DNA of 64,000 nt from assembly GCA_964538435.1 (NCBI GenBank), contig CAZIDX010000001.1, positions 64,393 through 128,392 of the forward strand, given 5' to 3'. Both the position numbers and the translations under genes were made by a program. Shown here in pieces: positions 1,064 to 21,769 of the stretch; within the stretch, counting starts at the first letter, position 1, and every line of letters begins with the position of its first letter. Source of the stretch: an uncultured Gammaproteobacteria bacterium. Its GTDB lineage: Bacteria > Patescibacteriota > Patescibacteriia > UBA9934 > GWF2-40-263. Below the pieces are notes generated by a model that made no database searches, was not told the origin of the DNA, and saw nothing but the letters and a program-made list of their open reading frames with translations.

Positions 1064-1133
1064 GGAATACGAGTACCTAACCGCTTTTCTAATACCTTGA
1101 AAAATTCGTGAAAACTGCTATTCTACAGCTGTT

Positions 1134-2495: not shown

Positions 2496-3451
2496 CCATT
2501 AAGCAGCAACTTGAAAGCAGCGTTGGTTCTCGGTTCAAAGAAGACGAACCGCTTTCAAAGCATGTAAATTTTCGCATTGGAGGCCCAGCAAAATACTTTG
2601 TCGAAGTGCGGTCAGTTGACGAGCTAACAGCTGTGCTCGATGTAGCAAACAAAGAGATGCAGAAGTTTTTTGTCTTTGGAGGAGGATCAAACATGCTGGT
2701 AAATGATCAAGGGTTTGACGGAATCGCAATCAAAATTGGAATGCGCTCATACGAGATTCGAGGAAAAGAAGTTCGGGCAGAGTCTGGTGTGCTCTCGTCA
2801 GCTCTGGCGCGCGCAACAGCCAACCATGGGCTCAAAGGTCTCTCCTGGATGATCACACTCCCAGGAACAATCGGTGGGGCCGTGCGTGGCAATGCAGGCT
2901 GCTTTGGCGGTGAAACAAAAGATTCTATTACAAGCGTTGAGGTTCTGCGTGATGGCAAGGTCAAAACACTTGATCGCCACCAAATCGAGTTTGGCTACCG
3001 CGACTCAATGTTCAAGCACAATGAAGACATCATCCTCGCAGCATCCTTTAAGCTTAAAAACGGAGATGTGACCGAGCTTAAAGCAGAACTGGACGATCAA
3101 CTCATGCGTCGAAAAAAAGCACAACCCTTTGATGCAGGTTCAGCCGGATGCATGTTCAAAAACGCAGCTGTGACCGAAGAAGATTTGCAACGCTTATCCA
3201 AAAAACTCGATATACCATCAGAGATGAGTGCAAGCCGGCAGCTATCTGTCGGCTGGCTCATCGACCAGCTTGATCTCAAGGGCAAGGCCGTCGGTGATGC
3301 TCAAGTCTCAGGTGTGCACGGAAATTTCCTTGTGAACAGAGGTGCAGCAACAGCTGACCAGATTGTGCAGCTCATTGCACTTATCAAGACCAGAGCAAGA
3401 GATGAATATGGTATTCTATTAGAGGAGGAAGTGCAGTACATAGGCTTCTAG
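2492..3451 (+). CDS. murB: UDP-N-acetylenolpyruvoylglucosamine reductase
   Basis: FAD-binding signature FRIGGPAKYFVEV...GGGSNMLV. It overlaps the murC stop by 4 nt (ATGA). Confidence 0.88.
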   Translation: MTIKQQLESSVGSRFKEDEPLSKHVNFRIGGPAKYFVEVRSVDELTAVLDVANKEMQKFFVFGGGSNMLVNDQGFDGIAIKIGMRSYEIRGKEVRAESGVLSSALARATANHGLKGLSWMITLPGTIGGAVRGNAGCFGGETKDSITSVEVLRDGKVKTLDRHQIEFGYRDSMFKHNEDIILAASFKLKNGDVTELKAELDDQLMRRKKAQPFDAGSAGCMFKNAAVTEEDLQRLSKKLDIPSEMSASRQLSVGWLIDQLDLKGKAVGDAQVSGVHGNFLVNRGAATADQIVQLIALIKTRARDEYGILLEEEVQYIGF

Positions 3452-3486
3452 GTCTGCACTAATTATTCACTTGATTTGATACATTT

Positions 3487-3834
3487 ATGCGCATCATCCA
3501 AATGAAGGGGACAAACATGGATCTCACTGACGCTATCAAAAACCACATAGAAAGCAGAGTAGATAGCCTTAGAAAATTGTGCGCAGAGTTTGACCCAGCA
3601 GACGAGCTCAGAGTTGAAGTAGGAAAATCTACAAAAGCCCATGCAAAAGGCCCGTATTTCAGAGCAGAGTTCCAGCTCCATGTGCCAGGCAAGGACATGC
3701 GGGCTGTAGAAGAGGGAGAAGATCTCTACGTGACCATCGACCGCGTCCGCGACTCAATCAAGCGACAACTCACAGACTACAAGAATCTTCTCAAGGACAA
3801 AGCCCAACGCGGCGGACGTCCAGGAAAGGAATAA
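3487..3834 (+). CDS. hpf: ribosome hibernation promoting factor (short HPF/RaiA family)
   Basis: The N-terminus MRIIQMKGTNMDLTDAIKNHIESRV aligns with the HPF beta1-alpha1 segment (MNIQITGKNIEVTDALRDYVEEKL). Length 115 aa. Confidence 0.75.
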   Translation: MRIIQMKGTNMDLTDAIKNHIESRVDSLRKLCAEFDPADELRVEVGKSTKAHAKGPYFRAEFQLHVPGKDMRAVEEGEDLYVTIDRVRDSIKRQLTDYKNLLKDKAQRGGRPGKE

Positions 3835-3835
3835 A

Positions 3836-3867
3836 TTGAAAAAGGCAGGCAATGACCTGTCTTTTTG
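3836..3867 (+). terminator. putative rho-independent terminator after hpf
   Basis: The sequence aaggcagg-caatga-cctgtctt (one G-U wobble) is followed by a T-run. Confidence 0.4.
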
Positions 3868-3915
3868 ATTGAAAGACTTGATTTTTACTCGATTACAGGC
3901 CATAATGCGCTCCGT

Positions 3916-6678
3916 ATGAGCAAAGTGTTAAAACTCCTTTTTGGAGACCCAAATAAGAAAATGTTGGCCAATCTGCAGGTGGATGTAGACAAGATCAACG
4001 CGCTTGAAAGCAAGTTTGAAGGCTTTTCAGACGACGATCTCAAGGCCAAAACGGTTGAGTATAAGAAACGTCTCAAAGAAGGAGAGACGATTGATGACTT
4101 TGTGCACGAGGCTTTTGCTGTTGTGCGCGAAGCTGCAAAGCGGACCCTTGGACAACGTCACTATGATGTGCAGCTCATTGGTGGGCTTGCATTGCATCGA
4201 GGACAGATTGCTGAGATGAGAACAGGTGAGGGAAAAACGTTGACCTCCACCCTTGCGCTTTACACAAACGCACTGGACGGCCGTGGCTGTCATTTGATTA
4301 CAGTGAACGATTACTTGGCTCGCCGTGACACCGTATGGATGGGGCAGGTTTTTCATTTCCTCGGACTCTCAACAGCATGTATCCAGCAGCAAGGCGGATT
4401 CCTCTACGACCCAGCGTTTGAGCACGCAAACCAGACTGATGCCGAAGCTGCAGCTGCAGACTCGTTTCATATCCGCGAAGATTTCCTTCGCCCAGTCGAG
4501 CGAGACGAGGCCTACAACGCAGACATCACCTACGGAACCAACAACCAGTTTGGGTTCGACTACTTGCGCGACAACATGGCACCAACTGTGAAGGAAACCG
4601 TGATGCGCGAGCTCAACTACGCCATCATCGACGAAATCGACTCAATCCTCATCGACGAGGCGCGCACACCACTTATCATTTCTGCTCCTGCTGAAAAGTC
4701 CGGCGAGCTTTATGCTCGTTTCTCACAGATTGTACAGGGGCTTACAGAAAACGAGCACTTCAATGTTGACGAAAAAATGCGCACTTCAACGCTCACGGAC
4801 GCTGGGATCGAAAGGATCGAACAAGAGCTCGGGATTGCTAATCTCTACGCGGTTGAGCAAGGAATCTACCAGCGCTACGCTGACACAGCTCTTCGCGCGC
4901 ACGCAAACTACGAGCGTGACGTGCATTATGTTGTACAAGACGGTCAGGTCATGATCGTGGATGAGTTCACAGGTCGTCTTATGCCAGGACGGCGGTTCTC
5001 TGAAGGGATCCACCAGGCCATTGAGGCAAAAGAGGGTGTTGAGATCAAGCGAGAGAGTCAGACGCTGGCGACCATCACATTCCAAAACCTCTTCCGAATG
5101 TACAACAAACTTTCTGGTATGACAGGTACGGCCGCAACAGAAGCAGAAGAGTTTGCAAGCATTTACAATCTAGAAGTCGTTGAAATCCCAACAAACAAGC
5201 CAATCGCGCGACTAGATCGCGGCGACAAGGTTTTCAAAAACGAGCGAGGGAAGTACATGGCGCTCGTAAACGAGGTAAAGCAGCTTCAGGAAAAAGGACA
5301 GCCAGTACTTATTGGTACAGCCTCAGTTGAGAAAAACGAGATGGTGCACGTGCTGCTCACAAAAGCCGGGGTTAAGCACGAGGTGCTCAATGCGAAAAAC
5401 CACGCGCGCGAGGCAGAAATCATTGCTCAAGCTGGAGCAAAGGGTGCGATCACAGTAGCAACCAACATGGCGGGTCGCGGAGTAGACATCAAACTTGGTG
5501 GAAATCCAGGCACAAAAGAATCAGAAGAAGAAATCAAGAAACTCGGTGGACTCTTTGTGATTGGTACTGAACGTCATGACTCGCGCCGAATCGACAATCA
5601 GCTCCGTGGGCGTTCTGGTCGACAAGGAGACCCAGGTGAAACCCAGTTCTATCTCTCAATGGAAGACGGTCTCATGCGCATCTTTGGATCAGATCGTGCA
5701 AAGGGAATGATGGATAAGCTCGGGATTCCAGATGAAATGCCAATCGAAAACAAGATGATCACAGGATCAATCGAAAAGGCTCAGACTCGAGTTGAGGGGC
5801 ATCACTTTGACGCACGTAAACACCTGCTCGAGTACGACGATGTGCTCAACAAGCATCGTGAGGTTATCTACGCCCGCCGTCAGGAGATTATGGAGCGTTT
5901 TGACCAGGACCCAGAAACACTCCGGCAGCGCGTGCTCGACATCATCGAAGGAGAGATGGAGCAGGTTGTCCTCTTCCACACAAGCCCAACCGAGGCCCCT
6001 GTTCATCTTGAGGGCGAGACAAAAGAAGACGAGAAAAAGCACGACTGGAACATCGAGGAAATCATCGAGACAGCACAAACCGTCATCTTCCTCACAGACG
6101 AAAACAAAGAAGAAATCCGCAATCTCGGTCTCGAAGCCGCTGAAAACAAGCTTGACGTAGCTGTTGGTCGCACAAAGATCATTGAAAAGGTTATGGAGTT
6201 TGTAAACGAAAACTACGACAAGCTCGACAACATCTTCTCAGATCGAGCTGACGTACAAAACATCGAGCGCGGAGTCGTCCTCCGAGCAATCGACATGCTC
6301 TGGGTCGACCACCTAGCAGCCATGCGCGCACTCAGAACAGGAATCGGTCTGCAAAGCTACGGACAGCGCGACCCGCTCATTGCATACAAAAAAGAAGGAT
6401 TCAACATCTTCCAGAACCTCCTAGGATCAATCAACCACGAGATCACACACAGCTTCTTCAAGTACGCAAAGCACGCAGTTGACGTAAAAGTACAAAAAGA
6501 ACTCAACTCCTCACTCCTCACCCGAGCCGGAGTCCAAATGTCAGGCGCAAGAAAAACCTCAGACCAAAAACAGCGCCAAGCAAGCACAGGAGGAGCAGGG
6601 AAAGCCGCGCCAAAAGTAGGTCGCAACGAGCCATGCCCATGCGGATCAGGAAAGAAGTATAAGAAATGTCATGGGTGA
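3916..6678 (+). CDS. secA: preprotein translocase ATPase SecA
   Basis: The [17 protein letters not shown] start is typical of SecA, and the C-terminus has the zinc finger [15 protein letters not shown] prefer ATG at 3916 over the ORF-track TTG at 3865. It is preceded by TTGATT-17-CATAAT. Confidence 0.9.
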
Positions 6679-8949: not shown

Positions 8950-11900
8950 CTAGATTGCGTGCTCTGCTATGTATTCTTTCAGAGCATTTGCCATCTTCTC
9001 GTATCCTTCACCTGTCATGTTATCGATGAAGTTGTCGTGTGTGCCAGACTTAAGATCTATTCCTGGGTCAATGATTGGATACGCCGCACGGAATTCACTA
9101 AACGGCATCAGATCCTCGCCATTACTGAATGCGGTTTCCACAAAACTCTGTGCGGCAGTAAGAAAATCTCCACCATTTGAGAGAATCCAGTTCTCTACAC
9201 CAATCCCTCCAAGACCGCCCTGGCCATAGTCACCCTTTTTGTAGCAACCAGCTTCAGTAAGTGTCATTTTTGCAAACACAACATTTGTTACCGTCCTCTC
9301 AAAAGCTTCTTCCCCATACTTCTCGCGAATGACATTGAGTCGATCTTGCACACCAAAATGAGATGAGTATTCTTCGTGCTCAGACTTTTGAACGAATGCA
9401 ATATCGATCCCCACAGGAATATCCAAACCTGGAACCGAAATGTCTCCAAAACGGAGTTGAATATCATGGGATCCGTTATCTGTTCCACCCAGAGCCTCCA
9501 GTTTTACGATAAACGCATCAAGAAGCTCGTCTCTGCGAGCGTAATCTGCAGGATCAAGTCGGATTGCAAAGTCAAAGTCATAGTCCTTAGGTCGGTTTGT
9601 AAAGCGAGTGGATGACCCAGTCTCATGCAACTCCGCACCCGCTATAGTGGCTTCGTGATCCACCCTCCATTCAATTCCAAGGGATGTGAACGTATCTGCC
9701 ACAAGTGCACGCACAGTCTCACAAGCAACCCTTGTTGCTTCCTTGTCTTCTTGCTTTGCTCTAAGCAATTCCTCAACAGCGTTGTTGTGAAATTCATCTG
9801 CCTCTGCTCGTGCAAGATCAAATTCAGGCCCATTCAGACTCTCAATACCTGCAAGAAACTTCTCACGCATCTGGTCATATTGCTCAGGTGTAAACAAGAG
9901 CTCTCCATCAAGGTTTATGATCGGCATGTACCAACCATTCGTAGCAACATCAATTTGTAGACTCTGAAGATGGCTTTGATCAAATTCATCACCAAGCACC
10001 ACGGCATCAAACTCAGAAGAGGGGAGACCTACAGTCACACCCGTATGCCTTTCAGTTCCTTTTGTTGGCACCATTGAACCGTCGCGCCTAAGAGAGGTAA
10101 GTTGATCTGAAACCAGGAGCTCATATTTTCCTTCTCGTTTGCGAGCCTCTCTTCCAAACAAAGGCATCTGCTCACCATCATCACTTGTGCGGATAAACTG
10201 ACCTCTGTCCCTGCTGTAGAAGTACACAGGTCCATAGCCCTGAACCCACTCTTCTGCTTCACGAAGATCAGATCGAACTTCAACAAAGTCAGTATTAAAC
10301 GGGGTCATATCATTCTCGCTAGATGCTCCAAGAAACTCCATTGAAACAGAACCTCCTCTCAACACATTTCTGAAGAACTGCTCGTTAACCCCTTTAAACT
10401 GGTCTCCGCTCTGAGGCGTAAATTCACCTGAGCGAATTTCTTCTGCTAAAGCCCTACCACGCTCGTTAGCACCTGCCTTCACCTGATCCATCCGATCAAG
10501 AACTTGATCGACCGATTCATACCCAACAGGCTTTGCAAACATTTCCTCGTACCTATCAACCAAACTCTGCCCCTCTTTAACCTGCATGCTCTCCAAAAGT
10601 TGCTTGAAGGTTGTGGCAAGGCCTTCCTCATTCATTGTAAATGGTTCTTCGTCAATTTTTCCAAGCATGGACACCTCATGAGCTGTAGACATCTTTTCGC
10701 AGAAACGAGAAAACCTCTTCTGTTCCTCTTCATTCATGCCCTCAAGTCCGACTTGTTCAAATTTTTGAATAACATCCCGAGCATCTCGTATACTTTCAAG
10801 ATAGGTTCTTAGAGAGTCGTTGTTTGATTCAATATTTACACGTGTGAGCTCTCGATAAGCAACCATTCTCATGCCCCTGGTGCTCACATCTTCAAGTGAA
10901 ACAACGGGGCCATCATCAAGACGTCTATCTAGAGTGCTCTGATCACGAAGATAGATTATTTCAAAGACTTTCAGGTGTTTTCCAAACTCAGGAAGATTGT
11001 TGCGAACAAAAATTGCTTCAATCTCTTCAACAGTCTCAAGGGGTTTTTCTGTTCTGTGAATAGCTGCTATGACAGAGTCTTTTACCTTTTGAAGTGAAGC
11101 CGAAGGTGATTGTTCAATTCGTGCATAAGCTTCAAAAAGATCAGGTCGAACACCCTCAGCCTCAAAGTGCTCACGATGAAACATGATCTGCTGGAATCGG
11201 CCTTTCTCTAGCGCGGAATCTATAAGCGCGTTGTAATCAATCTTCACCCCAGCTTGATCAAAGAGCCCTCCATATCCAAGAAGCACCTCTGTCCCAGCCT
11301 TCTGAGTAAGGGAATCAGCAAGCGCCTGCACTCCAACTTGATCTATGAAATCAGCATGATACTTCAAAAGTTGAGTGAATGCATACACACCATCACTTGT
11401 TGTTGGGTCTACATGCACCTTCACCGTCTCAACGATCTGCTGAACATCATCTTTAGATAATTCAAAGTTTGGACCTTGAAAAGCATTCTTCTCCACAAGA
11501 ATCCCAATCAGTTCTGTGTGAGTATCGATCCTTCCTATCAGAAGATCTTTAATTTGATTGCGCAATTCCGGATCAAGCAGCTCAAGAAAATCTGGATCAA
11601 TTATTCGTTGAACCTCTTTCACATTTCCATACTCAGCAGCTGTAAGTGCATAACGCTGTCTTGTTTCCGGATTCAGATCAACAGCATCAAAAGTGTGCAT
11701 TTCATACACAAGTGTGACTTCATCTTGTTCAAGAAGTCTCTGCGCAAACTCATCAGCTCTTTCCCCGGAGAAGGTGGCCAAGTAAAACGGCTCTCTGGTT
11801 AACATCCATGCTCTGCTGTCCCTGAACTTATCTCGGTCAAGCCACTCAGCTCCCTCAACATCTGCATGGTCTTTCAGTTTCAATACAATATCTGCAGTGT

Positions 11901-13170
11901 CACCTGCTGATAATTCTCGAAATTGGATCATTTTTTGAACGTTTTCAAGAAGAGGAGGACCAACTTCTGGAATTGCAAGAGCTTCTGGTTTTGATTCACA
12001 AAAGGCAATAGCGAAAGCCTTGATATGTTCTTTTGTCCTCAGTGCTGATGTCTTGAGAACAAGAGGGTTTCCATGTGAAAGAGCGATCTGCACTTCATCT
12101 TCAAGAGTGATGCTTGCCGGTCGCACGGATGATTCGTAGATATAAAGAGAGTTGATTGGAGCATCCTCCTCGGCAACAGCAGCAAGTTCATTCAAAGCGT
12201 TTATTCTTGTTTCTCTATCAAAGTCAGCATTCGTTCCAAGCATAAGAATCAACCCGGGAAGACCATGCTCAAATGCAGATGTTGCGAGCATTTCTTTTTG
12301 CTGCGCACTCATCTTTACATCACGGCCACGGTCGTCATAGACAGCTTCTCTCAATTCGTCTGGGCTCAATGCCATAAGCTTCTCAAGCATGCTCTGCCTT
12401 GCCTCATCAGAAGCATGTTCAAATACAACAGGATTGAGAAAATCGCCCTTCTCACCAATCCATTCTCCCTTTTCATTGTCAAAACAAAGCGCAGCTTTCA
12501 ATTCGCTTTGAAGAGCGGTCCTTCCTACGAACACATGATCAAGACGAAGTTTCGATGCGCAAAATTCACGCATGCCCGATGCAAGAGGATCGCCTTGATC
12601 CATGTCAACCACACGTTTGAAAAATCGTTCCTGCTGATCTGATGTGAGCGCAAGACCGTCAAAGTGATGTCTTACTTGGGGAAGATTGTGGTCCACCAAA
12701 GTATCAATAAGCTTATCGTGAGTCTCAGGCGTTAAAGCGTTTCCATCAATCAAGCTTAAAAACTCGCCTGCACTGCTTGGATCCTTGGCAATGGCATCAA
12801 CAAACATCTTGACTTGCTTGTAGTCAGGCTTCTCTCCAGACACAGACAATCTGTGTGCAATCTTCTTTGGATCACCAAGCCCGATTGTTTCCAGCATCTG
12901 GTCCATTGCTTCTTCGGCTCTCTGCGCAAGACTAGCGAGCTTCTCTCGCAGTGTCTCGTCAGGTTCCTCTCCAAGGTTTTCTGCTATCTCAGATGTCATC
13001 TGTTCTCCGCTTGCAACAAAATCTTCCACATGGCCTTCAGCCTGCTCTGCAAGTTCACCAGGGACTGGCTCATACCGATCATCCAGCTCCTCATTAGACA
13101 ATGGTTCAGACTCAGCACCTGCTTTCTGGTTGTCGCGTTTGTCCTCTCTATTCATTGTCATATTCCTCAT
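8950..13170 (-). CDS. giant 1406 aa protein with a C-terminal Pol-beta-superfamily nucleotidyltransferase-like motif
   Basis: Long uninterrupted ORF with an acidic N-terminus and no signal peptide. Near the C-terminus, GSSTRFTNRPKDYDFDFAI fits hG[GS]x9-13DhDh, and GIDIAFV about 55 aa downstream fits the third acidic strand. Confidence 0.7.
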   Translation of the reverse strand: MRNMTMNREDKRDNQKAGAESEPLSNEELDDRYEPVPGELAEQAEGHVEDFVASGEQMTSEIAENLGEEPDETLREKLASLAQRAEEAMDQMLETIGLGDPKKIAHRLSVSGEKPDYKQVKMFVDAIAKDPSSAGEFLSLIDGNALTPETHDKLIDTLVDHNLPQVRHHFDGLALTSDQQERFFKRVVDMDQGDPLASGMREFCASKLRLDHVFVGRTALQSELKAALCFDNEKGEWIGEKGDFLNPVVFEHASDEARQSMLEKLMALSPDELREAVYDDRGRDVKMSAQQKEMLATSAFEHGLPGLILMLGTNADFDRETRINALNELAAVAEEDAPINSLYIYESSVRPASITLEDEVQIALSHGNPLVLKTSALRTKEHIKAFAIAFCESKPEALAIPEVGPPLLENVQKMIQFRELSAGDTADIVLKLKDHADVEGAEWLDRDKFRDSRAWMLTREPFYLATFSGERADEFAQRLLEQDEVTLVYEMHTFDAVDLNPETRQRYALTAAEYGNVKEVQRIIDPDFLELLDPELRNQIKDLLIGRIDTHTELIGILVEKNAFQGPNFELSKDDVQQIVETVKVHVDPTTSDGVYAFTQLLKYHADFIDQVGVQALADSLTQKAGTEVLLGYGGLFDQAGVKIDYNALIDSALEKGRFQQIMFHREHFEAEGVRPDLFEAYARIEQSPSASLQKVKDSVIAAIHRTEKPLETVEEIEAIFVRNNLPEFGKHLKVFEIIYLRDQSTLDRRLDDGPVVSLEDVSTRGMRMVAYRELTRVNIESNNDSLRTYLESIRDARDVIQKFEQVGLEGMNEEEQKRFSRFCEKMSTAHEVSMLGKIDEEPFTMNEEGLATTFKQLLESMQVKEGQSLVDRYEEMFAKPVGYESVDQVLDRMDQVKAGANERGRALAEEIRSGEFTPQSGDQFKGVNEQFFRNVLRGGSVSMEFLGASSENDMTPFNTDFVEVRSDLREAEEWVQGYGPVYFYSRDRGQFIRTSDDGEQMPLFGREARKREGKYELLVSDQLTSLRRDGSMVPTKGTERHTGVTVGLPSSEFDAVVLGDEFDQSHLQSLQIDVATNGWYMPIINLDGELLFTPEQYDQMREKFLAGIESLNGPEFDLARAEADEFHNNAVEELLRAKQEDKEATRVACETVRALVADTFTSLGIEWRVDHEATIAGAELHETGSSTRFTNRPKDYDFDFAIRLDPADYARRDELLDAFIVKLEALGGTDNGSHDIQLRFGDISVPGLDIPVGIDIAFVQKSEHEEYSSHFGVQDRLNVIREKYGEEAFERTVTNVVFAKMTLTEAGCYKKGDYGQGGLGGIGVENWILSNGGDFLTAAQSFVETAFSNGEDLMPFSEFRAAYPIIDPGIDLKSGTHDNFIDNMTGEGYEKMANALKEYIAEHAI

Positions 13171-13318
13171 CGGTTAACATGCATTTCACTTTTCGGGCAG
13201 CAACATCACTAATGCGCCTTTCAAACATAGAAAGCGCCTTGAGCTGCTCGTGCTTCAGTTCTTTCATGGTCGCTTGAAACTCATCCCAAGCCTCTTGGAT
13301 TTCTTTTTGTGTAGCCAT
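13148..13318 (-). CDS. possible 56 aa helical protein overlapping the start of the giant gene
   Basis: ATG at 13318. Product MATQKEIQEAWDEFQATMKELKHEQLKALSMFERRISDVAARKVKCMLTDEEYDNE. It overlaps the giant ORF start by 23 nt. TAAAAT lies about 12 nt upstream. It is below the ORF-track length cutoff. Confidence 0.35.
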   Translation of the reverse strand: MATQKEIQEAWDEFQATMKELKHEQLKALSMFERRISDVAARKVKCMLTDEEYDNE

Positions 13319-13385
13319 ATTATTGCTTCAATTTTACACGAAAACACACCAAAATAGAAACACCCGTCAGGTCAAAACCGACGGG

Positions 13386-14699
13386 CTAGTTGGGGAGACG
13401 AATCTGGGCGACCAGACCGTCTGAGACAAGCTCGAGATCCATTGGACCCTTCCTTAGAAGCGCCAGGAGCCGGGCGTGTTGTTCGTCGCGAAGTCCGATG
13501 AGGACACAGTTATGGATCAGTTCCTGCTCGGCCTTAATGTTGTCGATCCTGCGCTGGATGGCACTGTGTGAGCTGTTACGCGTGATCGCGTTACACGTGA
13601 TCTGGCCCACTGCACCAAGACGGTAAAGAGTCAGCATCTGCATCGGGCCCCAATCCAAGTGAGGTTGCTCTTCCCATACAAAGATCGAAGTACCGTTCAG
13701 GAACGCTTCGTCAACATCCAGGTCGATCTCATCATCAACTGACGACTGCATCCACGTGCTCATGAGCCACTGGTTCTCAGTAGACGAGAGAATGCGTGCC
13801 TGACCCTTGTGTACAAAAGCACCGCTGATGGCTGCACTTGTTGCAATGAGGGTTGCATTCGATGACTCTGGCATTTCCTCGCGCATCTGCATGCGCCCAG
13901 GAGTTGGTCGGATCTGCACCAAGTGCCAATCATCAGGCTGATCAGGGTGAATCACGAGTTCGAGCTGAACACCGAACTTGGATCCGATCCCATTCTCAAT
14001 CACACGAGGAAGTTCTTGCGCAAGATCGGACCAGGGCAGGGTAACAGGATTCTCAACCAGCACCTCACCTCGTTGGAGCTCGACAAGAGTATTCCCATCT
14101 GTGTCCAGTACGGTAGTAGGCCCCTCATGATCCATGGTTGCACTTGTAAACTTTCGGATACCGCTCGGGCAAAATTCTCGTCCGCAGGAAATACGGACGA
14201 CAACCTGCTCGAGGATATCGCTCCATGCGATATCAACCACCACCCCAACACCCGTCACATGCTGTTGCAGTACGATGGGGATGCGGGCATGGATCGATTC
14301 GATGAGCTGGCCGCGCAGATTCGGAATCTTAACCTTGTGGGAAGGGTGAACGCCGCTGTCAGCCGAGAGCCAGTCTTCGTCATGTGCACTGCTGCGCACA
14401 ATGAGAACTTCGTTTTGGTCCTGCGCCCACGGGATACCAGCAATGAACTGGCCCATGTCCTGATGCATGACTTCAGAAAGTTGGATCCAACGCCACTTGG
14501 GCACCGAGATCTTGTCAGAGAGTCGCGCAATTCGCTTGCACAGCTCCAGTCCAAATGCTTTGCCCCCACCTGTCATCAGCGTAGTGACAAGCTGTAGATG
14601 ATCATCTGGATCCAGATGCTCAAATGCAGGATCCATCACAACAGCGCCTGCGCGCCGGTGGCCGTAAACCCAGCCACATGGGTCGAACTTCTTGTTCAT
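13386..14699 (-). CDS. PEP-utilising enzyme N-terminal (PPDK_N, ATP-grasp-like) domain protein; GC-rich
   Basis: TGGGKAFGLEL (GGKxxNL-like) and LIVRSSAHDEDWLSADSG (VRSSAxxED..SxAG) match the PPDK_N family. No His/PEP domain follows. Confidence 0.55.
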   Translation of the reverse strand: MNKKFDPCGWVYGHRRAGAVVMDPAFEHLDPDDHLQLVTTLMTGGGKAFGLELCKRIARLSDKISVPKWRWIQLSEVMHQDMGQFIAGIPWAQDQNEVLIVRSSAHDEDWLSADSGVHPSHKVKIPNLRGQLIESIHARIPIVLQQHVTGVGVVVDIAWSDILEQVVVRISCGREFCPSGIRKFTSATMDHEGPTTVLDTDGNTLVELQRGEVLVENPVTLPWSDLAQELPRVIENGIGSKFGVQLELVIHPDQPDDWHLVQIRPTPGRMQMREEMPESSNATLIATSAAISGAFVHKGQARILSSTENQWLMSTWMQSSVDDEIDLDVDEAFLNGTSIFVWEEQPHLDWGPMQMLTLYRLGAVGQITCNAITRNSSHSAIQRRIDNIKAEQELIHNCVLIGLRDEQHARLLALLRKGPMDLELVSDGLVAQIRLPN

Positions 14700-14830: not shown

Positions 14831-16885
14831 ATGCAAACTTGGAAAGTGAAGAAAAAGAACGAAAAAAAGCCAAAGAAGACAACAGGCGTGAAAATCGCCG
14901 CAATTTTACTTCTTTTGTCTACATTCGTTTTCGCGGGATATGACTTCCCGGGTGTATGGAATGGAGCAGCTCACTCTGTTGAGTCAGCAACAGGTTGGCT
15001 TCCACCAACACTAGAGGAGGAGGATTTCCGGCTCGGTCTTGATCTGCAAGGTGGAACACATCTCATCTATGAAGCAGACATGGCAGAGATCCCGGAAGAC
15101 GATCGTCTTGAAGCCCTTGAGGGAGTAAAGGATGTTATTGAGCGTCGTGTGAACGCGTTTGGTGTGTCTGAGCCTGTTGTGCAAACAACAACCACAGGTG
15201 GCACCTATCGTGTCATCATCGAACTCGCTGGAGTTCTTGATGTAAACGAGGCTATCTCACTTATTGGTGAGACCCCAGTACTTGAGTTCAAAGAGCCGGG
15301 TCAAGAGCTTGAACGTGATCCAACAGAAGAAGAATTAGCTCAAGTGGAAACAGCAAACGAAACCGAACGTGCAGATGCACAAGCTGTGCTTAGTCGCGCG
15401 CTGGCATACGAAGATTTTGATGCACTCGTGAGCGAGTTTAGTATCGAAGTTGACAAAGAGGAGCGAAAAGGTGTGATTGAAGGAATCACAGGAGACTCCC
15501 ACTTCTCTGATTTTCTGATTCTCGCAGAAGAGAACTACATGTGGGACGGACAGGTTCACAGTAGTCTGCATGAGACTGAAGATGGTATTAACATTTTCAA
15601 GCTGGTTGAAACAACCGAGCAGGCTCAAATGGAGCTTTCTCACATTTTGGTTTGTTACGAAGGGGCAATAGGATGTGAAACCGGACTTCCACAAATCGAA
15701 GCTCACACACAGATGAGTAGTCTCAAAGATGAGCTTACGGTTGAGAACTTTGCTGAAAAAGCCATGGAGTATTCAACCGGTCCTTCAGGGCCGATTGGAG
15801 GATCTCTTGGCTGGGCATCAGCTGACATGTTCGTAACACCATTTGCTGTTGCAGCAACCGCGCTCGAAGTTGGTGGGATCTCAGACGTGATTGAGACAGA
15901 ATTTGGTTACCACATCATCTACAAAACATCAGAGCGATCTACGCCGGCATACACAATTCAGCGAATCGTAATGCCGCTTACAGATATCTATGACGTGATC
16001 CCAGAAGTTTCACCATGGGAGAACACCGAGCTTTCTGGAAAGTACCTTGAGCGTGCTGGTGTGGAATTTGATATGAACACAGGAATGCCATACGTGGCAC
16101 TCAACTTTAACAGCGAAGGTGGAGACTTGTTTGGGGAGCTGACAGAAGCGCATGTTGGAGAGCCAATTGCGATCTTCCTCGATGGACAACCAATCTCAAC
16201 ACCAACAGTTCAGCAGGCAATCTACGGAGGAAAGGCGATTATCACTGGAGATTTCACAGTAGACGAGGCAAAGCTCTTGGCTCAGCGTCTAAACGCAGGT
16301 GCGCTTCCAGTTCCTGTAAACCTGCTCTCACAACAGACAATTGGACCAACACTGGGTGCCATCTCACTTGAAAAGAGCATCAATGCAGCGCTATTTGGCT
16401 TCCTGCTCGTGGCAATCTACATGGTTGCCATGTACCGACTTCCAGGCCTAGTTGCTGTTGCTGCGCTCCTCATGTTCGCATTCCTCAACATGGCTGCGTA
16501 CCGACTCTTTGATGTGACAATCACACTGGCTGGAATCGCTGGACTTGTTCTTTCACTCGGAATTGCTGTTGATGCAAACGTGCTCATTATCGAGCGTCTC
16601 AAAGAAGAGTTTGCCTCAGGTCGAGATTTTGTCTCATCACTTGACGAAGCTTTTGCTCGCGCCTGGACAGCTATTCGAGACGGAAACATCACAACACTCA
16701 TTGCTGCTGGAGTTCTATACTGGTTTAGCTCAAGCTTTATCCGAGGGTTCGCACTCACGCTATCAATTGGTGTGATCCTCTCAATGTTCACAGCAATTAC
16801 GGTTACACGCGTATACCTCAAATCCCTCTTGGATTGGAAGGCAATTCGCAAACCAGCCTTATTCGGGTTAAAGAAACGAGACTAA
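14831..16885 (+). CDS. secD: protein translocase subunit SecD with a PrsA/PpiC-type parvulin domain inserted in its periplasmic head
   Basis: SecD motifs LGLDLQGGTHLIYEAD and the C-terminal part of P1 are present. Residues about 266-366 read SHILVCYEG...GGSLGWASADMFVTPFAVAATALEVGGISDVIETEFGYHIIYK, a parvulin signature. Confidence 0.88.
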   Translation: MQTWKVKKKNEKKPKKTTGVKIAAILLLLSTFVFAGYDFPGVWNGAAHSVESATGWLPPTLEEEDFRLGLDLQGGTHLIYEADMAEIPEDDRLEALEGVKDVIERRVNAFGVSEPVVQTTTTGGTYRVIIELAGVLDVNEAISLIGETPVLEFKEPGQELERDPTEEELAQVETANETERADAQAVLSRALAYEDFDALVSEFSIEVDKEERKGVIEGITGDSHFSDFLILAEENYMWDGQVHSSLHETEDGINIFKLVETTEQAQMELSHILVCYEGAIGCETGLPQIEAHTQMSSLKDELTVENFAEKAMEYSTGPSGPIGGSLGWASADMFVTPFAVAATALEVGGISDVIETEFGYHIIYKTSERSTPAYTIQRIVMPLTDIYDVIPEVSPWENTELSGKYLERAGVEFDMNTGMPYVALNFNSEGGDLFGELTEAHVGEPIAIFLDGQPISTPTVQQAIYGGKAIITGDFTVDEAKLLAQRLNAGALPVPVNLLSQQTIGPTLGAISLEKSINAALFGFLLVAIYMVAMYRLPGLVAVAALLMFAFLNMAAYRLFDVTITLAGIAGLVLSLGIAVDANVLIIERLKEEFASGRDFVSSLDEAFARAWTAIRDGNITTLIAAGVLYWFSSSFIRGFALTLSIGVILSMFTAITVTRVYLKSLLDWKAIRKPALFGLKKRD

Positions 16886-16886
16886 T

Positions 16887-17777
16887 ATGCGTATGAACAT
16901 CGTAGAAAACCGCAAAAAGTGGTTCGTTCTATCAGGCGTCTTCGTTGCTGGAAGCATCATTGTTGTCACGCTGCTAGGACTCAGATTCGGAATCGACTTT
17001 ACTGGCGGAAGCTTGCTCGAGGTTGAATTTGAAGCCGCACCAGTTGTTGATGAGGTTCGAAGCACGCTAGCATCAGCGGGGTATACAGACGTAGCCGTGC
17101 AGACAACGGGAGAGCATGGTGTCATTATTCGAACAGACAGTCTTTCAGAAGACGAGCATCAAACAATCCTCACATCGCTTTCAGAGGCGCATGGAGAAGT
17201 TGAGGAGATGCGTTTTGACTCCATTGGGCCAGTGATCGGTGACGAGCTTCGCAGAACTGCGCTCATGGGGGTGGCACTCACACTGCTTCTCATCGGACTC
17301 TATGTCGCATGGGCATTCCGCAAGGTTACTGAACCTGTTGCTTCGTGGAAGTATGGAGCCCTCACAATCATGACAGCATTCCATGACGTAATCATCACGG
17401 TTGGTGCGTTCTCTCTCCTTGGTTACTTCTTTGGGTGGGAGATTGGGACAGCCTTCGTGGCGGCAACGCTAACCATTCTAGGTTACTCAATCAACGACAC
17501 AGTTGTAGTTTTTGACAGGACGCGAGAAAACCTCCTTCGCCGTGCCGCAGATACATTCGAAGACACCGTTGAAATGAGCATCAAGGAAACACTCATGCGC
17601 TCACTCAACACATCTGTCACCACATTACTTGCGCTAGCTGCGATCTTCCTTTTCGGAGGTGATAGCACGCAACCCTTCGCACTCGCGCTCATAATTGGAA
17701 TCGCGATCGGTACCTACTCGTCACTATTTCTGGCAAGTCCAGCTCTGGTCGAGTGGGAGCTCGCAGGCAAAAAATAA
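16887..17777 (+). CDS. secF: protein translocase subunit SecF
   Basis: 296 aa polytopic membrane protein directly after secD, with a typical SecF core. Confidence 0.88.
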   Translation: MRMNIVENRKKWFVLSGVFVAGSIIVVTLLGLRFGIDFTGGSLLEVEFEAAPVVDEVRSTLASAGYTDVAVQTTGEHGVIIRTDSLSEDEHQTILTSLSEAHGEVEEMRFDSIGPVIGDELRRTALMGVALTLLLIGLYVAWAFRKVTEPVASWKYGALTIMTAFHDVIITVGAFSLLGYFFGWEIGTAFVAATLTILGYSINDTVVVFDRTRENLLRRAADTFEDTVEMSIKETLMRSLNTSVTTLLALAAIFLFGGDSTQPFALALIIGIAIGTYSSLFLASPALVEWELAGKK

Positions 17778-17786
17778 TATCTGGAT

Positions 17787-17814
17787 AAAAAACTGGGTTT
17801 CGACCCAGTTTTTT
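17787..17814 (+). terminator. rho-independent terminator after secF
   Basis: ctgggt-ttcg-acccag followed by TTTTTT. Confidence 0.6.
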
Positions 17815-17837
17815 GATATACTTGTCTTATCAATCCC

Positions 17838-19577
17838 ATGCCTATGATTCCATTGTTGGGTATTCCGATTGTATCGGATGCAACAGGAACAGCTGCCGCA
17901 GCAACATCATACTTCGCACAACCTATCGATGCGATTCTTTTTGATATCCTGATCTGGTTTGGTTGGATCCCGATTGCAGTCACGCTTGTCTGGGGCTTCA
18001 CGCTGGTTTGGCTTGGTTACAGACAGGCTGGGCATGTGGCCAGGCTTAAGTACATGGTGCTTGCTATCGATGTTCCTGCAATGACAGAGCAGTCACCAAA
18101 GGCACTTGAGAACCTTTTTGCATCTCTGTACGCATGTAAGTCTTCGATCACATTCAAAGAAAAATGGCTCTACGGAAAATTAAATCCAAATTTTTCATTT
18201 GAGATTGTTTCCACAGAAGGCTATATCCAATTTCTAATCAGGTTCCAAACACGATTCCGAGATGTTATTGAAGCTGGTATCTACGCACACTATCCTGATG
18301 CAGAGATCACAGAAGTTGAGGACTACACTGAACAATTTCCAAAAACCTTTCCAAACGAAACACATGAAATGTGGGGAGGGGAAATTACGTTTGACAAACC
18401 GTCCATGTACCCACTTCGGACCTATGTTGATTTTGAAGATCGGTTGTCTGCAGAACTAAAAGACCCCTTGGCCTACATGCTCGAGCAAATGGCAAAAATG
18501 AAAGCAGGGGAGCATTTTTGGATTCAGATTATTGTCCAACCTTCAACAAATAGCTGGAAGGATGCAGGTGTGAATCACGTTAAGGCTATTTACGGGGATG
18601 TCCCAAAGCCAAAAAAGAGCAAGATTGCTGCTGGAGCCGAATCGCTCATGTCTTGGCCAAACGAGCTTCTTAAAGAAGGTATAGATGTAGATTTAAGCGG
18701 ACTGCTGTTTGGTGATGCAGCAAACGGAGAAGAAGACCCTTGGAAAGTTTTCAAGCTGACATTGCCCCAAATCGAGGAGGCAAAAGCCATTTTACAAAAA
18801 TCAACAAAGGTTGGGCACGGAGTAAAAATCCGCATTCTTTACGTTGCAAAGCACAACTCCTATGTAAAGATTGAGCGCACAGCAATGGTAAAGGGGATCA
18901 TGAACCAGTACGCACACCTCAACTTCAATCGTTTTGGTCTGCATATTGCTTCAGTTCCAAAAGATGATTATTTCTGGATGAAATGGAGCTATACAAAACG
19001 CCAAAACACACTCATGAAGGCATATTGCTCACGCTCATGGGGAATTGGCGCACACAACATGTGGATGAACGTTGAGGAATTGGCAACGCTTTGGCATTTC
19101 CCTGCGGTCCACATTAAAGCACCGCTCGTTAAGAAGGCAGAGGCCAAGCGTGCCGAGCCTCCGGTTGGTCTTCCCATCACAGATCTAGAAGACACACTTC
19201 CTGGATACAAACCCACCACAGCAGACGAGGGGTTGGATCTGCCTGGGGCTGGGCAAGATCAGCAAGAATATTCAGCCGGCATTGCCACAGCTGATTCAGT
19301 GATGGGTGAGCCGCCTGTGGATCTCCCAGGAGCGAGTCTAGAGGATGGTCCGTTGCCAGAAACACTTCCTTCAACAATCGCACCAACAAGCACAGAGCAA
19401 CCAGAACCTGAAACAACAATCGATATCCCAGAGCCACCTGAACCAGAACCTGAAAAAGACCCTCTTGCATTTGAAGAAAGCGTACTCCCTGAGGTAAAGG
19501 CTCCGACCGACAAAGAAAGCCAAGAAGAACTCAAGGACGATGATGAAACATTTGTCCCACCAAACCTTCCAGTATGA
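17838..19577 (+). CDS. membrane-anchored protein with an acidic, Pro-rich C-terminus; partner of the downstream T4CP-like ATPase
   Basis: One or two N-terminal TM helices, then a roughly 480 aa soluble region. The C-terminal region is Pro-, Glu- and Asp-rich. Its stop overlaps the next ATG. Confidence 0.55.
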   Translation: MPMIPLLGIPIVSDATGTAAAATSYFAQPIDAILFDILIWFGWIPIAVTLVWGFTLVWLGYRQAGHVARLKYMVLAIDVPAMTEQSPKALENLFASLYACKSSITFKEKWLYGKLNPNFSFEIVSTEGYIQFLIRFQTRFRDVIEAGIYAHYPDAEITEVEDYTEQFPKTFPNETHEMWGGEITFDKPSMYPLRTYVDFEDRLSAELKDPLAYMLEQMAKMKAGEHFWIQIIVQPSTNSWKDAGVNHVKAIYGDVPKPKKSKIAAGAESLMSWPNELLKEGIDVDLSGLLFGDAANGEEDPWKVFKLTLPQIEEAKAILQKSTKVGHGVKIRILYVAKHNSYVKIERTAMVKGIMNQYAHLNFNRFGLHIASVPKDDYFWMKWSYTKRQNTLMKAYCSRSWGIGAHNMWMNVEELATLWHFPAVHIKAPLVKKAEAKRAEPPVGLPITDLEDTLPGYKPTTADEGLDLPGAGQDQQEYSAGIATADSVMGEPPVDLPGASLEDGPLPETLPSTIAPTSTEQPEPETTIDIPEPPEPEPEKDPLAFEESVLPEVKAPTDKESQEELKDDDETFVPPNLPV

Positions 19578-21769
19578 CAATGCATCACGACCATGAGAAC
19601 GAGGTGACGTATTTTGGAAAGACCAACTTCCGCAATCAGCTCACCAAGTTCGGAATCAAAACCGACGATAGGCGTAGGCATATCTACGTGATCGGAAAGA
19701 CCGGTATGGGTAAGACGACATTGATGGAAAACTTCATCTTGTCTGATATCTATGCGGGTCATGGTTGTTGTTATGTTGATCCTCACGGAGACACTGCAGA
19801 AAAACTTATTGACTTCATTCCAAGCTGGCGCATCAATGACGTAGTGTATTTCAACCCAGCTGATTTAGAATATCCTGTAGGATTTAATATTCTCGAAGCT
19901 GTTACAGAAAGGCATAAGCACTTAGTTGCTTCTGGAATGATGGCAGTGTTCGCCAAGATTTGGGAAGGAATGTGGTCATCGCGAATGGAATACATTCTCA
20001 ACAACACTATCCTTGCGCTCCTGGACAATCCAGGCCAAACAATGCTTGGAATCAACCGAATGATGTCTGATGCGGAATTTAGAAAGCGAATGGTTGGAAA
20101 CATTAAAGATCCGGTTGTAAAACAATTCTGGGTAAAGGAGTTCGCTAGCTGGTCAGAGAAATACGCCACAGAAGCCACAGCCGCCATTCAAAACAAGATC
20201 GGTCAGTTCTTGTCTGCGGGTGTGATCCGAAACGTGGTTGCGCAGGTTAAGTCCACAATCGACATCCGTGACATCATGGATTCTGAAAAGATTTTCATCA
20301 TCAACCTGTCAAAAGGGCGTATTGGTGAAGATAACTCCAGGCTCCTGGGTGGGTTGCTTATTACAAAAATTCAGCTCGCAGCCATGGAGCGTGTGGATGT
20401 ACCAGAAAAGGAGCGCAAAGACTTTTATCTCTACGTGGATGAGTTCCAAAACTTTGCTGTTGAATCTTTTGCGTCCATTTTGTCTGAGGCGCGTAAGTAT
20501 CGCCTTTGCCTAACCATGGCTCACCAGTACATTGCTCAGCTCACAGAAGAAGTTCGCGATGCTGTGTTTGGTAACGTTGGAACCATTCTTGCCTTTCGTG
20601 TTGGAGCAGCAGATGCCATGTACATGGAAACCGAGTTTACACCTAGGTTTCTGCCAGAAGACATTATCAATCTTCCAAAATTCAACATCTACCTCAAACT
20701 ATTGATTGATGGTGTGACAAGCCAGCCGTTTTCAGCGGTCACGCTCCCGCCAATTGCTCAAGTAACACACTCATCAGAAAAGGTGATTAGAATTGGACGT
20801 GAGCGCTATGCTGAGCCTCGTGCACACATTGAAAAGAATGTTCTCGATTGGAGCGGGCTTGGAAAACAAACGGATGAAGAGATGTATGCAGAAGCTGCAG
20901 AGAAAAAGAAAGCAGCAAAGAGCGCAAACAAACCTCGGCACGAATACAACTGCACACGCTGCAACACAGACATTGTGCTTCCGGTAGAGCTAGATCGTTC
21001 TCGTGCTATTTACTGTGACGACTGCATCACCATTGTTCGTGAGGAGCGAAAGAACAACAAAAAAGGAAAGAAAGGCAAGTCTGCTGACAAGCCAAAGCCG
21101 CCAAAGCCTTCAGAGGGCCAGGTGGTTGAAGCAAAGCCAGAAGAACCATCAATTAGTTTGAAAAAGCTGGAGACCAAGCCAGCAAAAGAAGACCGTCCTA
21201 AGCTAAAGGTTGTCCTTCCTGCAGAGATTAAAGAGCGAGAAGAAAAAGCAAAAGAAAAGGCAAGAGCTGAGAAGGAAAAACCAAAACCACCAAAACAAGA
21301 AAAAGCTCCAGAGCCAGAGAAGAAGCCAGAAGCTCCAAAACAACCAAAGCCCGAGCACAAAAAAGAAGACAAACCAAAAGAAGAAGAAACGGTCGGTCTA
21401 AAAAAGCTAGAGGAAAAACCAAAGAAACCGGTTCAGGAGGATCGGCCAAAATACAAAGTGATTCCTCCAAAGAAAAAAGAAGAACAAAAACCGAAGACAG
21501 AGGAGCAACCAAAACAAGAGGATCCAAAACCTCAAGATGCTCCAAAAAAGAAAAAGAGAAAGAGACGAAGGAAAAAGAAGCCTGGTCAAAACCCTGAGCA
21601 GCCGAAAAAAAACGAAAACAAACCTGAACCTCCAAAAGCAGACAAGCAGGACAAGCCAGAACAGGATAAAACCAAGCGGCCGCCAACACCAAAGCAGTTT
21701 CAAAAGCAAAAAACAGAAGATCACGTAAGCGGCAAGCTCAAACCTGGACAAAGCATCCAGTTTGATTAA
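19574..21769 (+). CDS. type IV coupling protein-like ATPase (TraD/TrwB/VirD4 family), soluble, with a zinc ribbon and a basic repetitive tail
   Basis: Walker A VIGKTGMGKTT, YVDPHGD, Walker B FYLYVDEFQNF, and ARKYRLCLTMAHQYIAQL. Zinc ribbon CTRCNT..CDDC. About 230 aa of K/E/P-rich tail. No N-terminal TM. Confidence 0.7.
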   Translation: MTMHHDHENEVTYFGKTNFRNQLTKFGIKTDDRRRHIYVIGKTGMGKTTLMENFILSDIYAGHGCCYVDPHGDTAEKLIDFIPSWRINDVVYFNPADLEYPVGFNILEAVTERHKHLVASGMMAVFAKIWEGMWSSRMEYILNNTILALLDNPGQTMLGINRMMSDAEFRKRMVGNIKDPVVKQFWVKEFASWSEKYATEATAAIQNKIGQFLSAGVIRNVVAQVKSTIDIRDIMDSEKIFIINLSKGRIGEDNSRLLGGLLITKIQLAAMERVDVPEKERKDFYLYVDEFQNFAVESFASILSEARKYRLCLTMAHQYIAQLTEEVRDAVFGNVGTILAFRVGAADAMYMETEFTPRFLPEDIINLPKFNIYLKLLIDGVTSQPFSAVTLPPIAQVTHSSEKVIRIGRERYAEPRAHIEKNVLDWSGLGKQTDEEMYAEAAEKKKAAKSANKPRHEYNCTRCNTDIVLPVELDRSRAIYCDDCITIVREERKNNKKGKKGKSADKPKPPKPSEGQVVEAKPEEPSISLKKLETKPAKEDRPKLKVVLPAEIKEREEKAKEKARAEKEKPKPPKQEKAPEPEKKPEAPKQPKPEHKKEDKPKEEETVGLKKLEEKPKKPVQEDRPKYKVIPPKKKEEQKPKTEEQPKQEDPKPQDAPKKKKRKRRRKKKPGQNPEQPKKNENKPEPPKADKQDKPEQDKTKRPPTPKQFQKQKTEDHVSGKLKPGQSIQFD

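Follow-up and report, generated by a model that had tools for sequence, protein, structure and literature searches.

A widespread family of giant proteins in bacteria, with a conserved C-terminal module predicted to join an ADP-ribosyltransferase-like and a Pol-beta nucleotidyltransferase fold

The reverse strand of a 64,000-nucleotide stretch of contig CAZIDX010000001.1 (assembly GCA_964538435.1; hereafter the window, meaning this whole stretch, in whose coordinates positions are given) carries a giant open reading frame (ORF) at 8950..13170, with its stop codon at 8950–8952, which encodes 1406 aa when counted from the first ATG and is preceded by a small overlapping ORF. This 4.2-kb gene is real, and its features go far beyond chance; its C-terminal 730 aa align at 29–44% identity with ORFs of more than 75 other genomes. 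Judged by sequence searches, it is not an orphan and belongs to a large and widespread family that is unnamed in curated libraries. In the explanation that we favor, and in which we place about even confidence, these are standalone giant proteins whose C-terminal module of ~730 aa combines an all-alpha domain, a domain of ADP-ribosyltransferase (ART) fold, and a Pol-beta nucleotidyltransferase (NTase) domain, and which would serve as nucleic-acid-end enzymes in a conflict-related role.

The giant protein and its family

Direct reading of the junction revealed three in-frame ATGs in the giant ORF, at 13170, 13161, and 13155. The last of them follows, at a gap of 8 nt, a Shine-Dalgarno-like GAGGA (13168–13164, reverse strand) located within the 3' end of the small ORF, and it is also the position at which the gene caller starts the giant gene on a public Logan contig, giving 1401 aa. 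These two observations make M6 (13155) the likely start in preference to the first ATG. Hence, the 1406-aa ORF described in an earlier interpretation made from the letters alone (the sequence-only reading) stands as an ORF, with 1401 aa as the likelier length of its product.

The same reading had pointed to an acidic N-terminus and to the absence of a signal peptide, both of which were recovered here: Asp and Glu sum to 28 against 9 Lys and Arg in residues 1–100, the protein is acidic over its whole length, none of its segments is hydrophobic or signal-like (KD19 at most 1.2), and no transmembrane (TM) segment was found in a composition and hydropathy scan. Self-BLAST detected no internal repeats in the middle region or in the protein as a whole. 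Comparison of the giant protein with Pfam, NCBIfam, PADLOC, and PHROGs returned nothing significant and no model of the family, so that its middle, as had been stated, matches no curated family. The designer pentatricopeptide repeat proteins brought up at residues 610–680 by a whole-protein phmmer search against PDB were biased, domain-less matches and were rejected as compositional. Residues ~6–667 (11170..13155, reverse strand) form a lineage-specific acidic N-terminal region, for which no family, repeats, or TM segment was detected.

Homologue searches with a word index returned the protein itself and then four fragments matching its last 450 aa, one of them from a Collierbacteria metagenome-assembled genome (MAG). 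An exhaustive HMMER search with the fragment alignment retrieved 962 representative clusters (50% identity) at E<1e-3, with 634 at E<1e-30, and nearly all of the matched proteins comprise 1200–2400 aa and are matched at their very C-terminal end. When one genome per GTDB species was scanned with an exact pattern, relatives of the giant protein turned up at loci of at least 219 GTDB species. The giant ORFs at these homologous loci are typically of 1200–2400 aa and reach 3078 aa, and the homologous region ends the ORF in nearly every complete locus. By MAG label, the best 80 of the 219 loci spread through many Patescibacteria classes, including Saccharibacteria, as well as "Gammaproteobacteria" MAGs, many gut "Bacilli," Micavibrio, and Pseudobdellovibrionaceae. 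Gene content is very small in Patescibacteria and in other bacteria that are tiny or host-dependent, yet many of them retain this family gene of 4–7 kb. As a separate observation, the 3078-aa version is found at a Patescibacteria locus (L030), and some genomes hold two family copies (L034, at 31–819 and 2983–5250; L071, at 847–3048 and 9173–11230; L077 and L079, from the same MAG), with adjacent double copies on one contig in one Peribacteria MAG and one gut Bacilli MAG.

Conservation within the family is strongly asymmetric. When the whole giant protein was aligned with the loci using tblastn, residues ~675–1406 aligned at 29–37% identity everywhere and the first ~670 aligned nowhere. Among the best 150 representatives, N-terminal similarity was detected by tblastn and phmmer in P0042 (residues 22–318, 24% identity) and weakly in P0064, the former being the closest relative with 44% identity to the giant protein over the core. 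This combination of a conserved core and a divergent N-terminus indicates that the unit under selection is the C-terminal module of ~730 aa, located behind a fast-evolving N-terminal region. In 29 full-length members, no Pfam family covered the core. The polymorphic-toxin interpretation offered by the sequence-only reading is not borne out by this pattern, which is the reverse of the expected one in having the C-terminal module conserved and the N-terminus variable, and no conserved immunity gene lies downstream.

Predicted domains of the C-terminal module

The best-defined feature of the module is its C-terminal NTase domain, for which Foldseek matches and invariant residues delimit a Pol-beta core followed by a helical domain of the type found in poly(A) polymerase (PAP) and oligoadenylate synthetase (OAS), at residues ~1175–1406 (8953..9648, reverse strand). 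The NTase signature GSSTRFTNRPKDYDFDFAI noticed earlier occupies residues 1185–1203, which is 221 residues before the C-terminal end, with its GS...DxD at 9571–9618, and the segment GIDIAFV proposed as the third acidic strand corresponds to residues 1253–1259, in which D1256 (9403–9405) is invariant in homologues. Altogether, G1185, S1186, R1189, T1191, D1198, D1200, and D1256 are invariant in alignments of 29 and 56 sequences. An AF2 model of residues 958–1406 reached pLDDT values of 70–88 across this domain, and Foldseek placed it closest in PDB to the archaeal class I CCA-adding enzymes 3ouy and 1r89 (E 3e-7), followed by OASL, Cid1, CdnC/D/E, NF90, DncV, and cGAS; the matches to CCA-adding, OASL, Cid1, CD-NTase, and cGAS structures had probabilities of 1.00 and E-values from 3e-7 to 1e-3. 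Identity between the domain and the archaeal CCA-adding enzymes with their wider PAP/TUTase/OAS/cGAS/CD-NTase branch is only 12–17%. The call of a C-terminal Pol-beta NTase is thus supported by the modelled fold as well as by the conservation of GS, DxD, and the third Asp, and by motif and predicted fold the domain is a member of the Pol-beta superfamily, with all of its predicted catalytic residues kept, so that it is catalytically intact as far as its sequence tells. The further proposal of an AMPylation-type module found no specific support, as the domain resembles archaeal CCA-adding enzymes, OAS, Cid1, and CD-NTases, and neither GlnE nor DrrA appeared in the top 50 Foldseek PDB matches of the model.

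Profile searches were less informative. PF01909 (NTP_transf_2) weakly matched 21 of 56 homologous regions (best 1.2e-4), isolated matches to SMODS (weak, in 2 of the 56), MTPAP-like, and DZF occurred among the same regions, and no PDB match below E 0.18 was obtained in profile searches with either the NTase or the core alignment. Weak matches to HEPN_RiboL-PSP (PF18735) were also observed in five of the 56 NTase regions (best E 1.5e-4), the window copy being without one. C-terminal to the catalytic core lies an invariant segment, K1301...Y1310-K1311...GGxGGxGVENW, in which GGIGVENW corresponds to residues 1321–1328, with the protein ending ~80 aa thereafter. By eye, this segment may resemble the helical "neck" or the PAP/OAS substrate-binding domain of this NTase branch, and its K...YK...GGxGGxxxExW motif the K...YG...GFSGY..ELL stretch of CCA-adding enzymes.

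The two domains that precede the NTase were modelled with AF2 over residues 668–1150 using a 61-sequence alignment (pLDDT 86.8, pTM 0.87). Residues 668–913 (10432..11169, reverse strand) comprise an all-alpha domain conserved in 63 homologues, in which most of the 10-residue blocks have pLDDT >90 (model m0d37cecabc21), and which showed no significant structural neighbours except designed helical repeats. Residues ~917–1107 (9850..10422, reverse strand) form an alpha/beta domain whose ART fold assignment is moderately well supported by the model; by predicted fold, it probably belongs to the ART superfamily. Its best match in the structural search was Tpt1, with DarT, likewise a nucleic-acid-directed ART, among the neighbours and CteC, OspC3, SopF, PARP10/15, and the diphtheria, pertussis, and heat-labile toxins lower down. 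The residues G922, D923, K926, G927, D954, D961, E1017, and H1042 are conserved in this domain. When the family profile was compared by hhalign with a small Tpt1 alignment (PDB sequences and E. coli KptA), GDLLKGV...NILQNGS was paired with LYHGT...ILKxGL of Tpt1 over 25 columns at E 0.15, which sets K926 (90% conserved) against the His of the Tpt1 HGT; E1017 is 100% conserved. On this basis, we tentatively place K926 at the first (His/Arg) catalytic position of ARTs and E1017 at the third, as the catalytic Glu. Neither this second enzyme-like domain nor the breadth of the family had been noticed in the sequence-only reading.

Since the best structural matches of both domains, Tpt1 and the archaeal CCA-adding enzyme, are tRNA-processing proteins, the module could be read as a housekeeping system for the repair or maturation of RNA (tRNA) ends in the cell's own cytoplasm, joining Tpt1-like 2'-phosphate removal, or the handling of modified ends, to a CCA-adding-like rebuilding of the 3' end. 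The giant protein indeed looks cytoplasmic, has no match on mobile elements, and is encoded among chromosomal housekeeping genes that include those of aminoacyl-tRNA synthetases. Such a role seems to us quite improbable, given that the Arg-His-Arg-Arg tetrad borne by the N-lobe motifs of Tpt1 has no counterpart and the hhalign match is confined to the 25 columns, that the NTase region of ~230 aa, against the 430–441 aa of archaeal CCA-adding enzymes, leaves no visible room for a tRNA-binding body and tail, that the family occurs in a small fraction of each phylum's genomes in the exact-pattern scan, and that the N-terminus of 670 aa diverges more rapidly than would suit a core enzyme.

The small upstream ORF and the genomic context

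The small ORF (13148..13318, reverse strand) encodes a helical peptide of 56 aa, appears in the ORF list, and is also among the gene calls of the public Logan contig. Its TAG stop (13150–13148) overlaps the likely start of the giant gene. The overlap of 23 nt reported earlier holds when the giant gene is counted from its first ATG, and shrinks to only 8 nt (ATGAATAG) from the likely start at 13155. The -10 box that had been assigned to the small ORF is readable in the sequence, as TAAAAT with TG before it (13338–13331), that is, a possible extended -10 TGTAAAAT on the reverse strand, 12 nt 5' of the small ORF's ATG; it is weak evidence, being without statistical support, without a -35 partner that we could find, and absent from the elements listed by the consensus promoter scan. 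If used, it would leave a very short leader. Further upstream, a hairpin of 9 pairs (6 of them GC) with the T-run tail GTTTCTATTT resembles an intrinsic terminator (13362..13386, reverse strand) and follows a 437-aa gene (13386–14699, reverse strand). As this terminator divides them from the 437-aa gene, the small ORF and the giant gene look like a transcription unit of their own.

To what extent this arrangement recurs was surveyed in the 64 homologous loci whose 5' end is complete; about 10 of them hold a same-strand ORF of 49–64 aa ending a few nt from the giant gene's start, often with a 4-nt ATGA overlap. Homologues of the small ORF lie directly 5' of the giant gene in L003, L004, L006, L009, L010, L014, L015, L021, L023, L028, and L045, and in all the small ORF is known at ~12 other loci, with an ATGA overlap or a short gap, or ~13 counting the window. 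Aligned with the window peptide, the ~10 ORFs of this survey share the pattern I-x-x-A-W-x-x-F...M/L-x-x-L...Q...L...F/Y, followed by a charged helix. A hidden Markov model (HMM) built from these ORFs, searched against all six-frame segments of all loci, matched only directly upstream of the giant gene, including two matches outside its training set (L006, E 3e-11; L028, 6e-4). On the contig of the closest relative (L083), a called 53-aa gene located 8 nt upstream of the giant gene shares 49% identity with the window's 56-aa peptide over 37 residues. The small ORF is thus real and conserved in L083 and ~11 other loci, where its translational coupling to the giant gene, as suggested by the sequence-only reading for the window, is probable. 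The small gene is absent from "Bacilli"-type loci and from many Patescibacteria loci, and since it is missing in most loci it is not essential to the giant-protein family. From these comparisons of sequence, we regard it as a genuine partner that is confined to a subset of lineages. Searches of Pfam, NCBIfam, PADLOC, and PHROGs with the small ORF gave nothing significant and no recognizable DNA-binding or antitoxin family.

A small gene coupled 5' of a larger one is the classic layout of type II toxin–antitoxin systems, which is present in ~13 loci including the window and absent in ~52 of the 64. This layout is one of the features that would suit a single-polypeptide immune protein of the anti-phage or abortive-infection kind, in which the hypervariable N-terminal region would sense an invader and the conserved module would fire, through an OAS/CD-NTase-like signal, a block of tRNA 3' ends, or DarT-like ADP-ribosylation, with the small ORF as an antitoxin-like brake. 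Many sensor–effector defence proteins combine a variable N-terminus with a conserved enzymatic module, as is the case here; moreover, OASL, cGAS, CdnC/D/E, and DarT are among the structural neighbours, the distribution over phyla is apparently patchy, and the Collierbacteria copy (L002) lies beside HepT, CopG, and BrnT toxin–antitoxin genes. We nevertheless consider this possibility unlikely: PADLOC models match neither the giant protein nor the small ORF nor the 437-aa protein, the immediate neighbours are mostly housekeeping genes rather than defence islands, no NTPase or known sensor domain was found, most loci are without the small ORF, and the best matches of the NTase are CCA-adding enzymes, not CD-NTases.

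The surroundings of the giant gene have the character of a chromosomal core, as the window encodes SecA, MurC, ClpB, a short AlaRS, PriA, MurJ, and GluRS, and the GC content near the gene is unremarkable. No conserved operon partner besides the small ORF emerged when 686 neighbour ORFs were clustered by BLAST and 125 immediate neighbours were surveyed with Pfam. The immediate neighbours are mostly housekeeping genes, with serine recombinases accounting for four of the 125 and type IV secretion system (T4SS) coupling proteins for two. By tblastn, the family had no match in 50,697 phage records and 72,556 plasmids, nor any in IMG/VR, and a mobile-element origin was rejected on these grounds. The 437-aa gene was likewise set aside as a part of the system: its product matched nothing in Pfam, NCBIfam, PADLOC, PHROG, or PDB (the sole trace being a very weak hit to NCBIfam PRK05849 at E 0.07), it is a singleton cluster in a collection of 15 billion proteins, the 422-aa gene in the equivalent place of L083 is no homologue of it, it has no relative near other loci, and the terminator separates it from the small ORF.

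One recurrent association concerns secretion-related genes. In L010 (1–6188) and L021 (75–1763), two distant loci of Patescibacteria type, genes for DUF8128 and a VirD4/TrwB-like coupling ATPase lie directly upstream of the small-ORF/giant pair and are collinear with it. In the window, a SecD(-PpiC fusion)-SecF-DUF8128-VirD4/TrwB-like block (14831–21769, forward strand) adjoins the unit in divergent orientation, with the VirD4-like/DUF8128 pair 6.4 kb from the giant gene, and in L032 SecDF lies just downstream of it. This linkage, seen in 3–4 of ~66 loci, is a hint that may be a remnant of ancestral synteny or may point to a functional connection with type IV secretion.

It is on this hint that an exported effector or toxin could be argued for, which would be delivered into a host or prey, for example, by T4SS-like machinery, and whose ART-like and NTase domains would poison nucleic acids or proteins there, with the small protein as an export chaperone or inhibitor. 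The labelled hosts are mostly host-dependent or predatory (Saccharibacteria, other Patescibacteria, Micavibrio, Pseudobdellovibrionaceae, and gut Bacilli MAGs), and Saccharibacteria were reported to retain T4SS genes, for which the authors proposed the translocation of nutrients and/or effectors (PMC7427843). In addition, toxins and giant "polyvalent" proteins alike often contain ART and Pol-beta NTase domains (PMC5512222). Against such an export stand the absence of a signal peptide or TM segment in the giant protein, the lack of a conserved secretion-system neighbour in the ~60 other loci and of a conserved immunity gene downstream, the reversal of the conservation seen in polymorphic toxins, and the failure to find a match in plasmid and phage collections, the host inference itself depending on MAG labels; in our judgment, therefore, an effector is a rather doubtful alternative.

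Some further observations on the surroundings stand by themselves. The window's SecD (14831–16885, forward strand) is a 684-aa SecD–peptidyl-prolyl isomerase fusion with a PpiC-type rotamase (Rotamase and Rotamase_3 matches). Its AlaRS (38254–40140, forward strand) is only 628 aa long, stopping directly behind the tRNA_SAD editing-associated domain; a typical bacterial AlaRS has ~870 aa, and the short form fits a reduced-genome organism. A four-helix-bundle "23S rRNA intervening sequence protein" homologue (PF05635; 6697–7332, forward strand) lies among the housekeeping genes, and Rfam and ARAGORN found no rRNA or tRNA genes in the 64 kb. After the Collierbacteria homologue in L002 (1508–6535), which is cut at the contig end, come genes for an AAA_14/DUF4143 ATPase, three CopG-type antitoxins, and a BrnT toxin, together with a HepT fragment; this toxin–antitoxin-rich neighbourhood is unlike most other loci.

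Proposed function and comparison with known systems

In the favored explanation, the NTase would bind NTP and Mg2+ through D1198, D1200, and D1256 and transfer nucleotides without a template, most likely onto the 3' end of an RNA (tRNA-like). For both domains, the closest structures are those of enzymes working on nucleic acids, in two cases on tRNA. The ART-like domain would bind either NAD+ or a nucleic-acid end that is phosphorylated or ADP-ribosylated, and would modify or process the substrate of the NTase, with the conserved helical domain and the fast-evolving acidic helical N-terminal region of ~670 aa recognizing a substrate, partner, or trigger. In the window and in some Patescibacteria-type lineages, a helical protein of ~50–60 aa, co-translated from the overlapping upstream ORF, would act as a partner, be it a regulator, an inhibitor, or a chaperone. 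The apparently patchy distribution over several phyla, the variable N-terminus, and the domains resembling conflict enzymes make an accessory, conflict-related role more likely than core housekeeping in our analysis. The analysis shows the structure of the gene, the size of the family, the predicted domain folds, the conservation of residues and of the small ORF, and the lack of matches in mobile-element collections, from which we infer catalysis by either domain, the nucleic-acid substrate, the role of the small protein, and the biological role.

Several observations weigh against this explanation. The NTase fold cannot tell primer extension, as in CCA-adding enzymes, PAP, and terminal uridylyltransferases (TUTases), from second-messenger synthesis, as in OAS and CD-NTases, and the domain could instead act on a protein or a small molecule. 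For the ART-like domain, the Foldseek E-values are non-significant, with the PARP1 catalytic domain, DarT, CteC, and PARP12 as top matches; relaxed scans of 63 core sequences with ART Pfam models gave no match and nothing recurrent; the hhalign match to Tpt1, restricted to C-lobe columns, is likewise non-significant; and neither an H-Y-E nor an R-S-E triad could be recognized in its canonical form. Moreover, the window protein and P0042 deviate at near-invariant residues of this domain (D959N and R1046T/S in both, T1047V in the window only; window nt ~10294–10296 and ~10030–10035), positions which are 97–98% conserved in the family. These changes may represent a functional shift in the window subclade, and the domain may be altered in this lineage, working differently or being inactive. 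Lastly, the small ORF is missing from ~52 of the 64 complete loci, and the "patchy distribution" is drawn from an exact-pattern scan and MAG labels, which fall short of a phyletic profile.

A bolder form of the proposal, which we advance only tentatively and hold to be less probable than not by some way, is that of a new class of giant bifunctional enzymes in which an NAD+-using ART-like and an NTP-using CCA/OAS-like NTase domain act on nucleic-acid ends, and which would serve episymbiotic, predatory, and genome-reduced bacteria as host-directed effectors (a VirD4-like route being possible) or as single-polypeptide immune sensors, with a micro-protein partner in some lineages. The two folds joined in the conserved module, a Tpt1/DarT-type ART and a CCA-adding/OAS/CD-NTase-type NTase, both have a central place in RNA processing, toxins, and innate immunity. 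If both domains are active, the module would constitute a new way to mark or repair nucleic-acid ends and a candidate for host manipulation by episymbionts or for phage resistance. With ~960 clusters at 50% identity and clear predicted catalytic residues, the question is directly testable.

By its GS-x11-DxD, third Asp, GSxxRxT, and the helical domain that follows, the NTase resembles the branch of archaeal class I CCA-adding enzymes, PAP, TUTases, OAS, cGAS, and CD-NTases. Unlike the CCA-adding enzymes, it is located at the end of a 1400-aa protein and beside an ART-like domain, its ~230 residues hold the NTase core and one helical domain with no visible tRNA-binding body and tail domains, and it has no HMM-level PDB match, all of which sets it apart from class I. 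A published study of CCA-adding enzymes counts Patescibacteria among the lineages with canonical class II enzymes, which has no bearing on the giant family. With respect to the CD-NTase/SMODS proteins of CBASS, there is no PADLOC match, there are no CBASS-type partner genes and no conserved neighbours, and the predicted fold is nearer to CCA enzymes than to CdnC/D/E; adenylyltransferases of the GlnE/DrrA type are missing from the 50 best structural matches; and MNT-HEPN systems differ in that the giant protein has a helical extension, a length of 1400 aa, and no conserved HEPN neighbour. Compared with Tpt1/KptA and DarT, the ART-like domain has a first strand and helix that align with those of Tpt1 and an invariant Glu (E1017) on a later strand; it departs from them in having, on our tentative mapping, Lys in place of the first-position His (or Arg), from typical ARTs in its extra invariant acidic residues D954 and D961, and from DarT in that its loci are without a DarG-like macrodomain partner. 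In hhalign, the N-terminal winged-helix lobe of Tpt1/KptA, with its LRH and GHS motifs, had no counterpart.

Among systems with NTase toxins, the type II pairs AbiEi/AbiEii and MenA/MenT likewise have a small upstream gene overlapping the start of an NTase-fold gene, and toxins of the AbiEii/MenT type act on tRNA 3' ends. The giant "toxin" is unlike them in its 1400 aa and its two enzyme-like domains, and the small gene is missing in most members, with no PADLOC match. With polymorphic toxins the giant protein shares its large size and an enzymatic C-terminal domain of a fold that toxins use, and it is distinguished from them by a conserved C-terminus behind a variable N-terminus and by the lack of a signal or trafficking domain and of a conserved immunity gene downstream. 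Closer to it are the polyvalent proteins described by Iyer, Burroughs, Anand, de Souza, and Aravind in 2017 (PMC5512222), giant multi-enzyme proteins with recurrent ART and Pol-beta NTase domains, which were read as conflict effectors. Their genes reside in phages, prophages, and conjugation loci, and their domain combinations are highly variable. The giant family, unlike these, has a single fixed three-domain module in chromosomal housekeeping surroundings, with no phage, plasmid, or IMG/VR match. The pairing of ART and NTase as a fixed module was absent from the libraries and literature searched, and a literature search in which subscription journals were thinly covered returned no description of an ART+NTase giant protein in the candidate phyla radiation or of the family. 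The "polyvalent protein" is the nearest published concept to the giant family, in which the component folds are already known and the fixed architecture and the family itself appear to be new.

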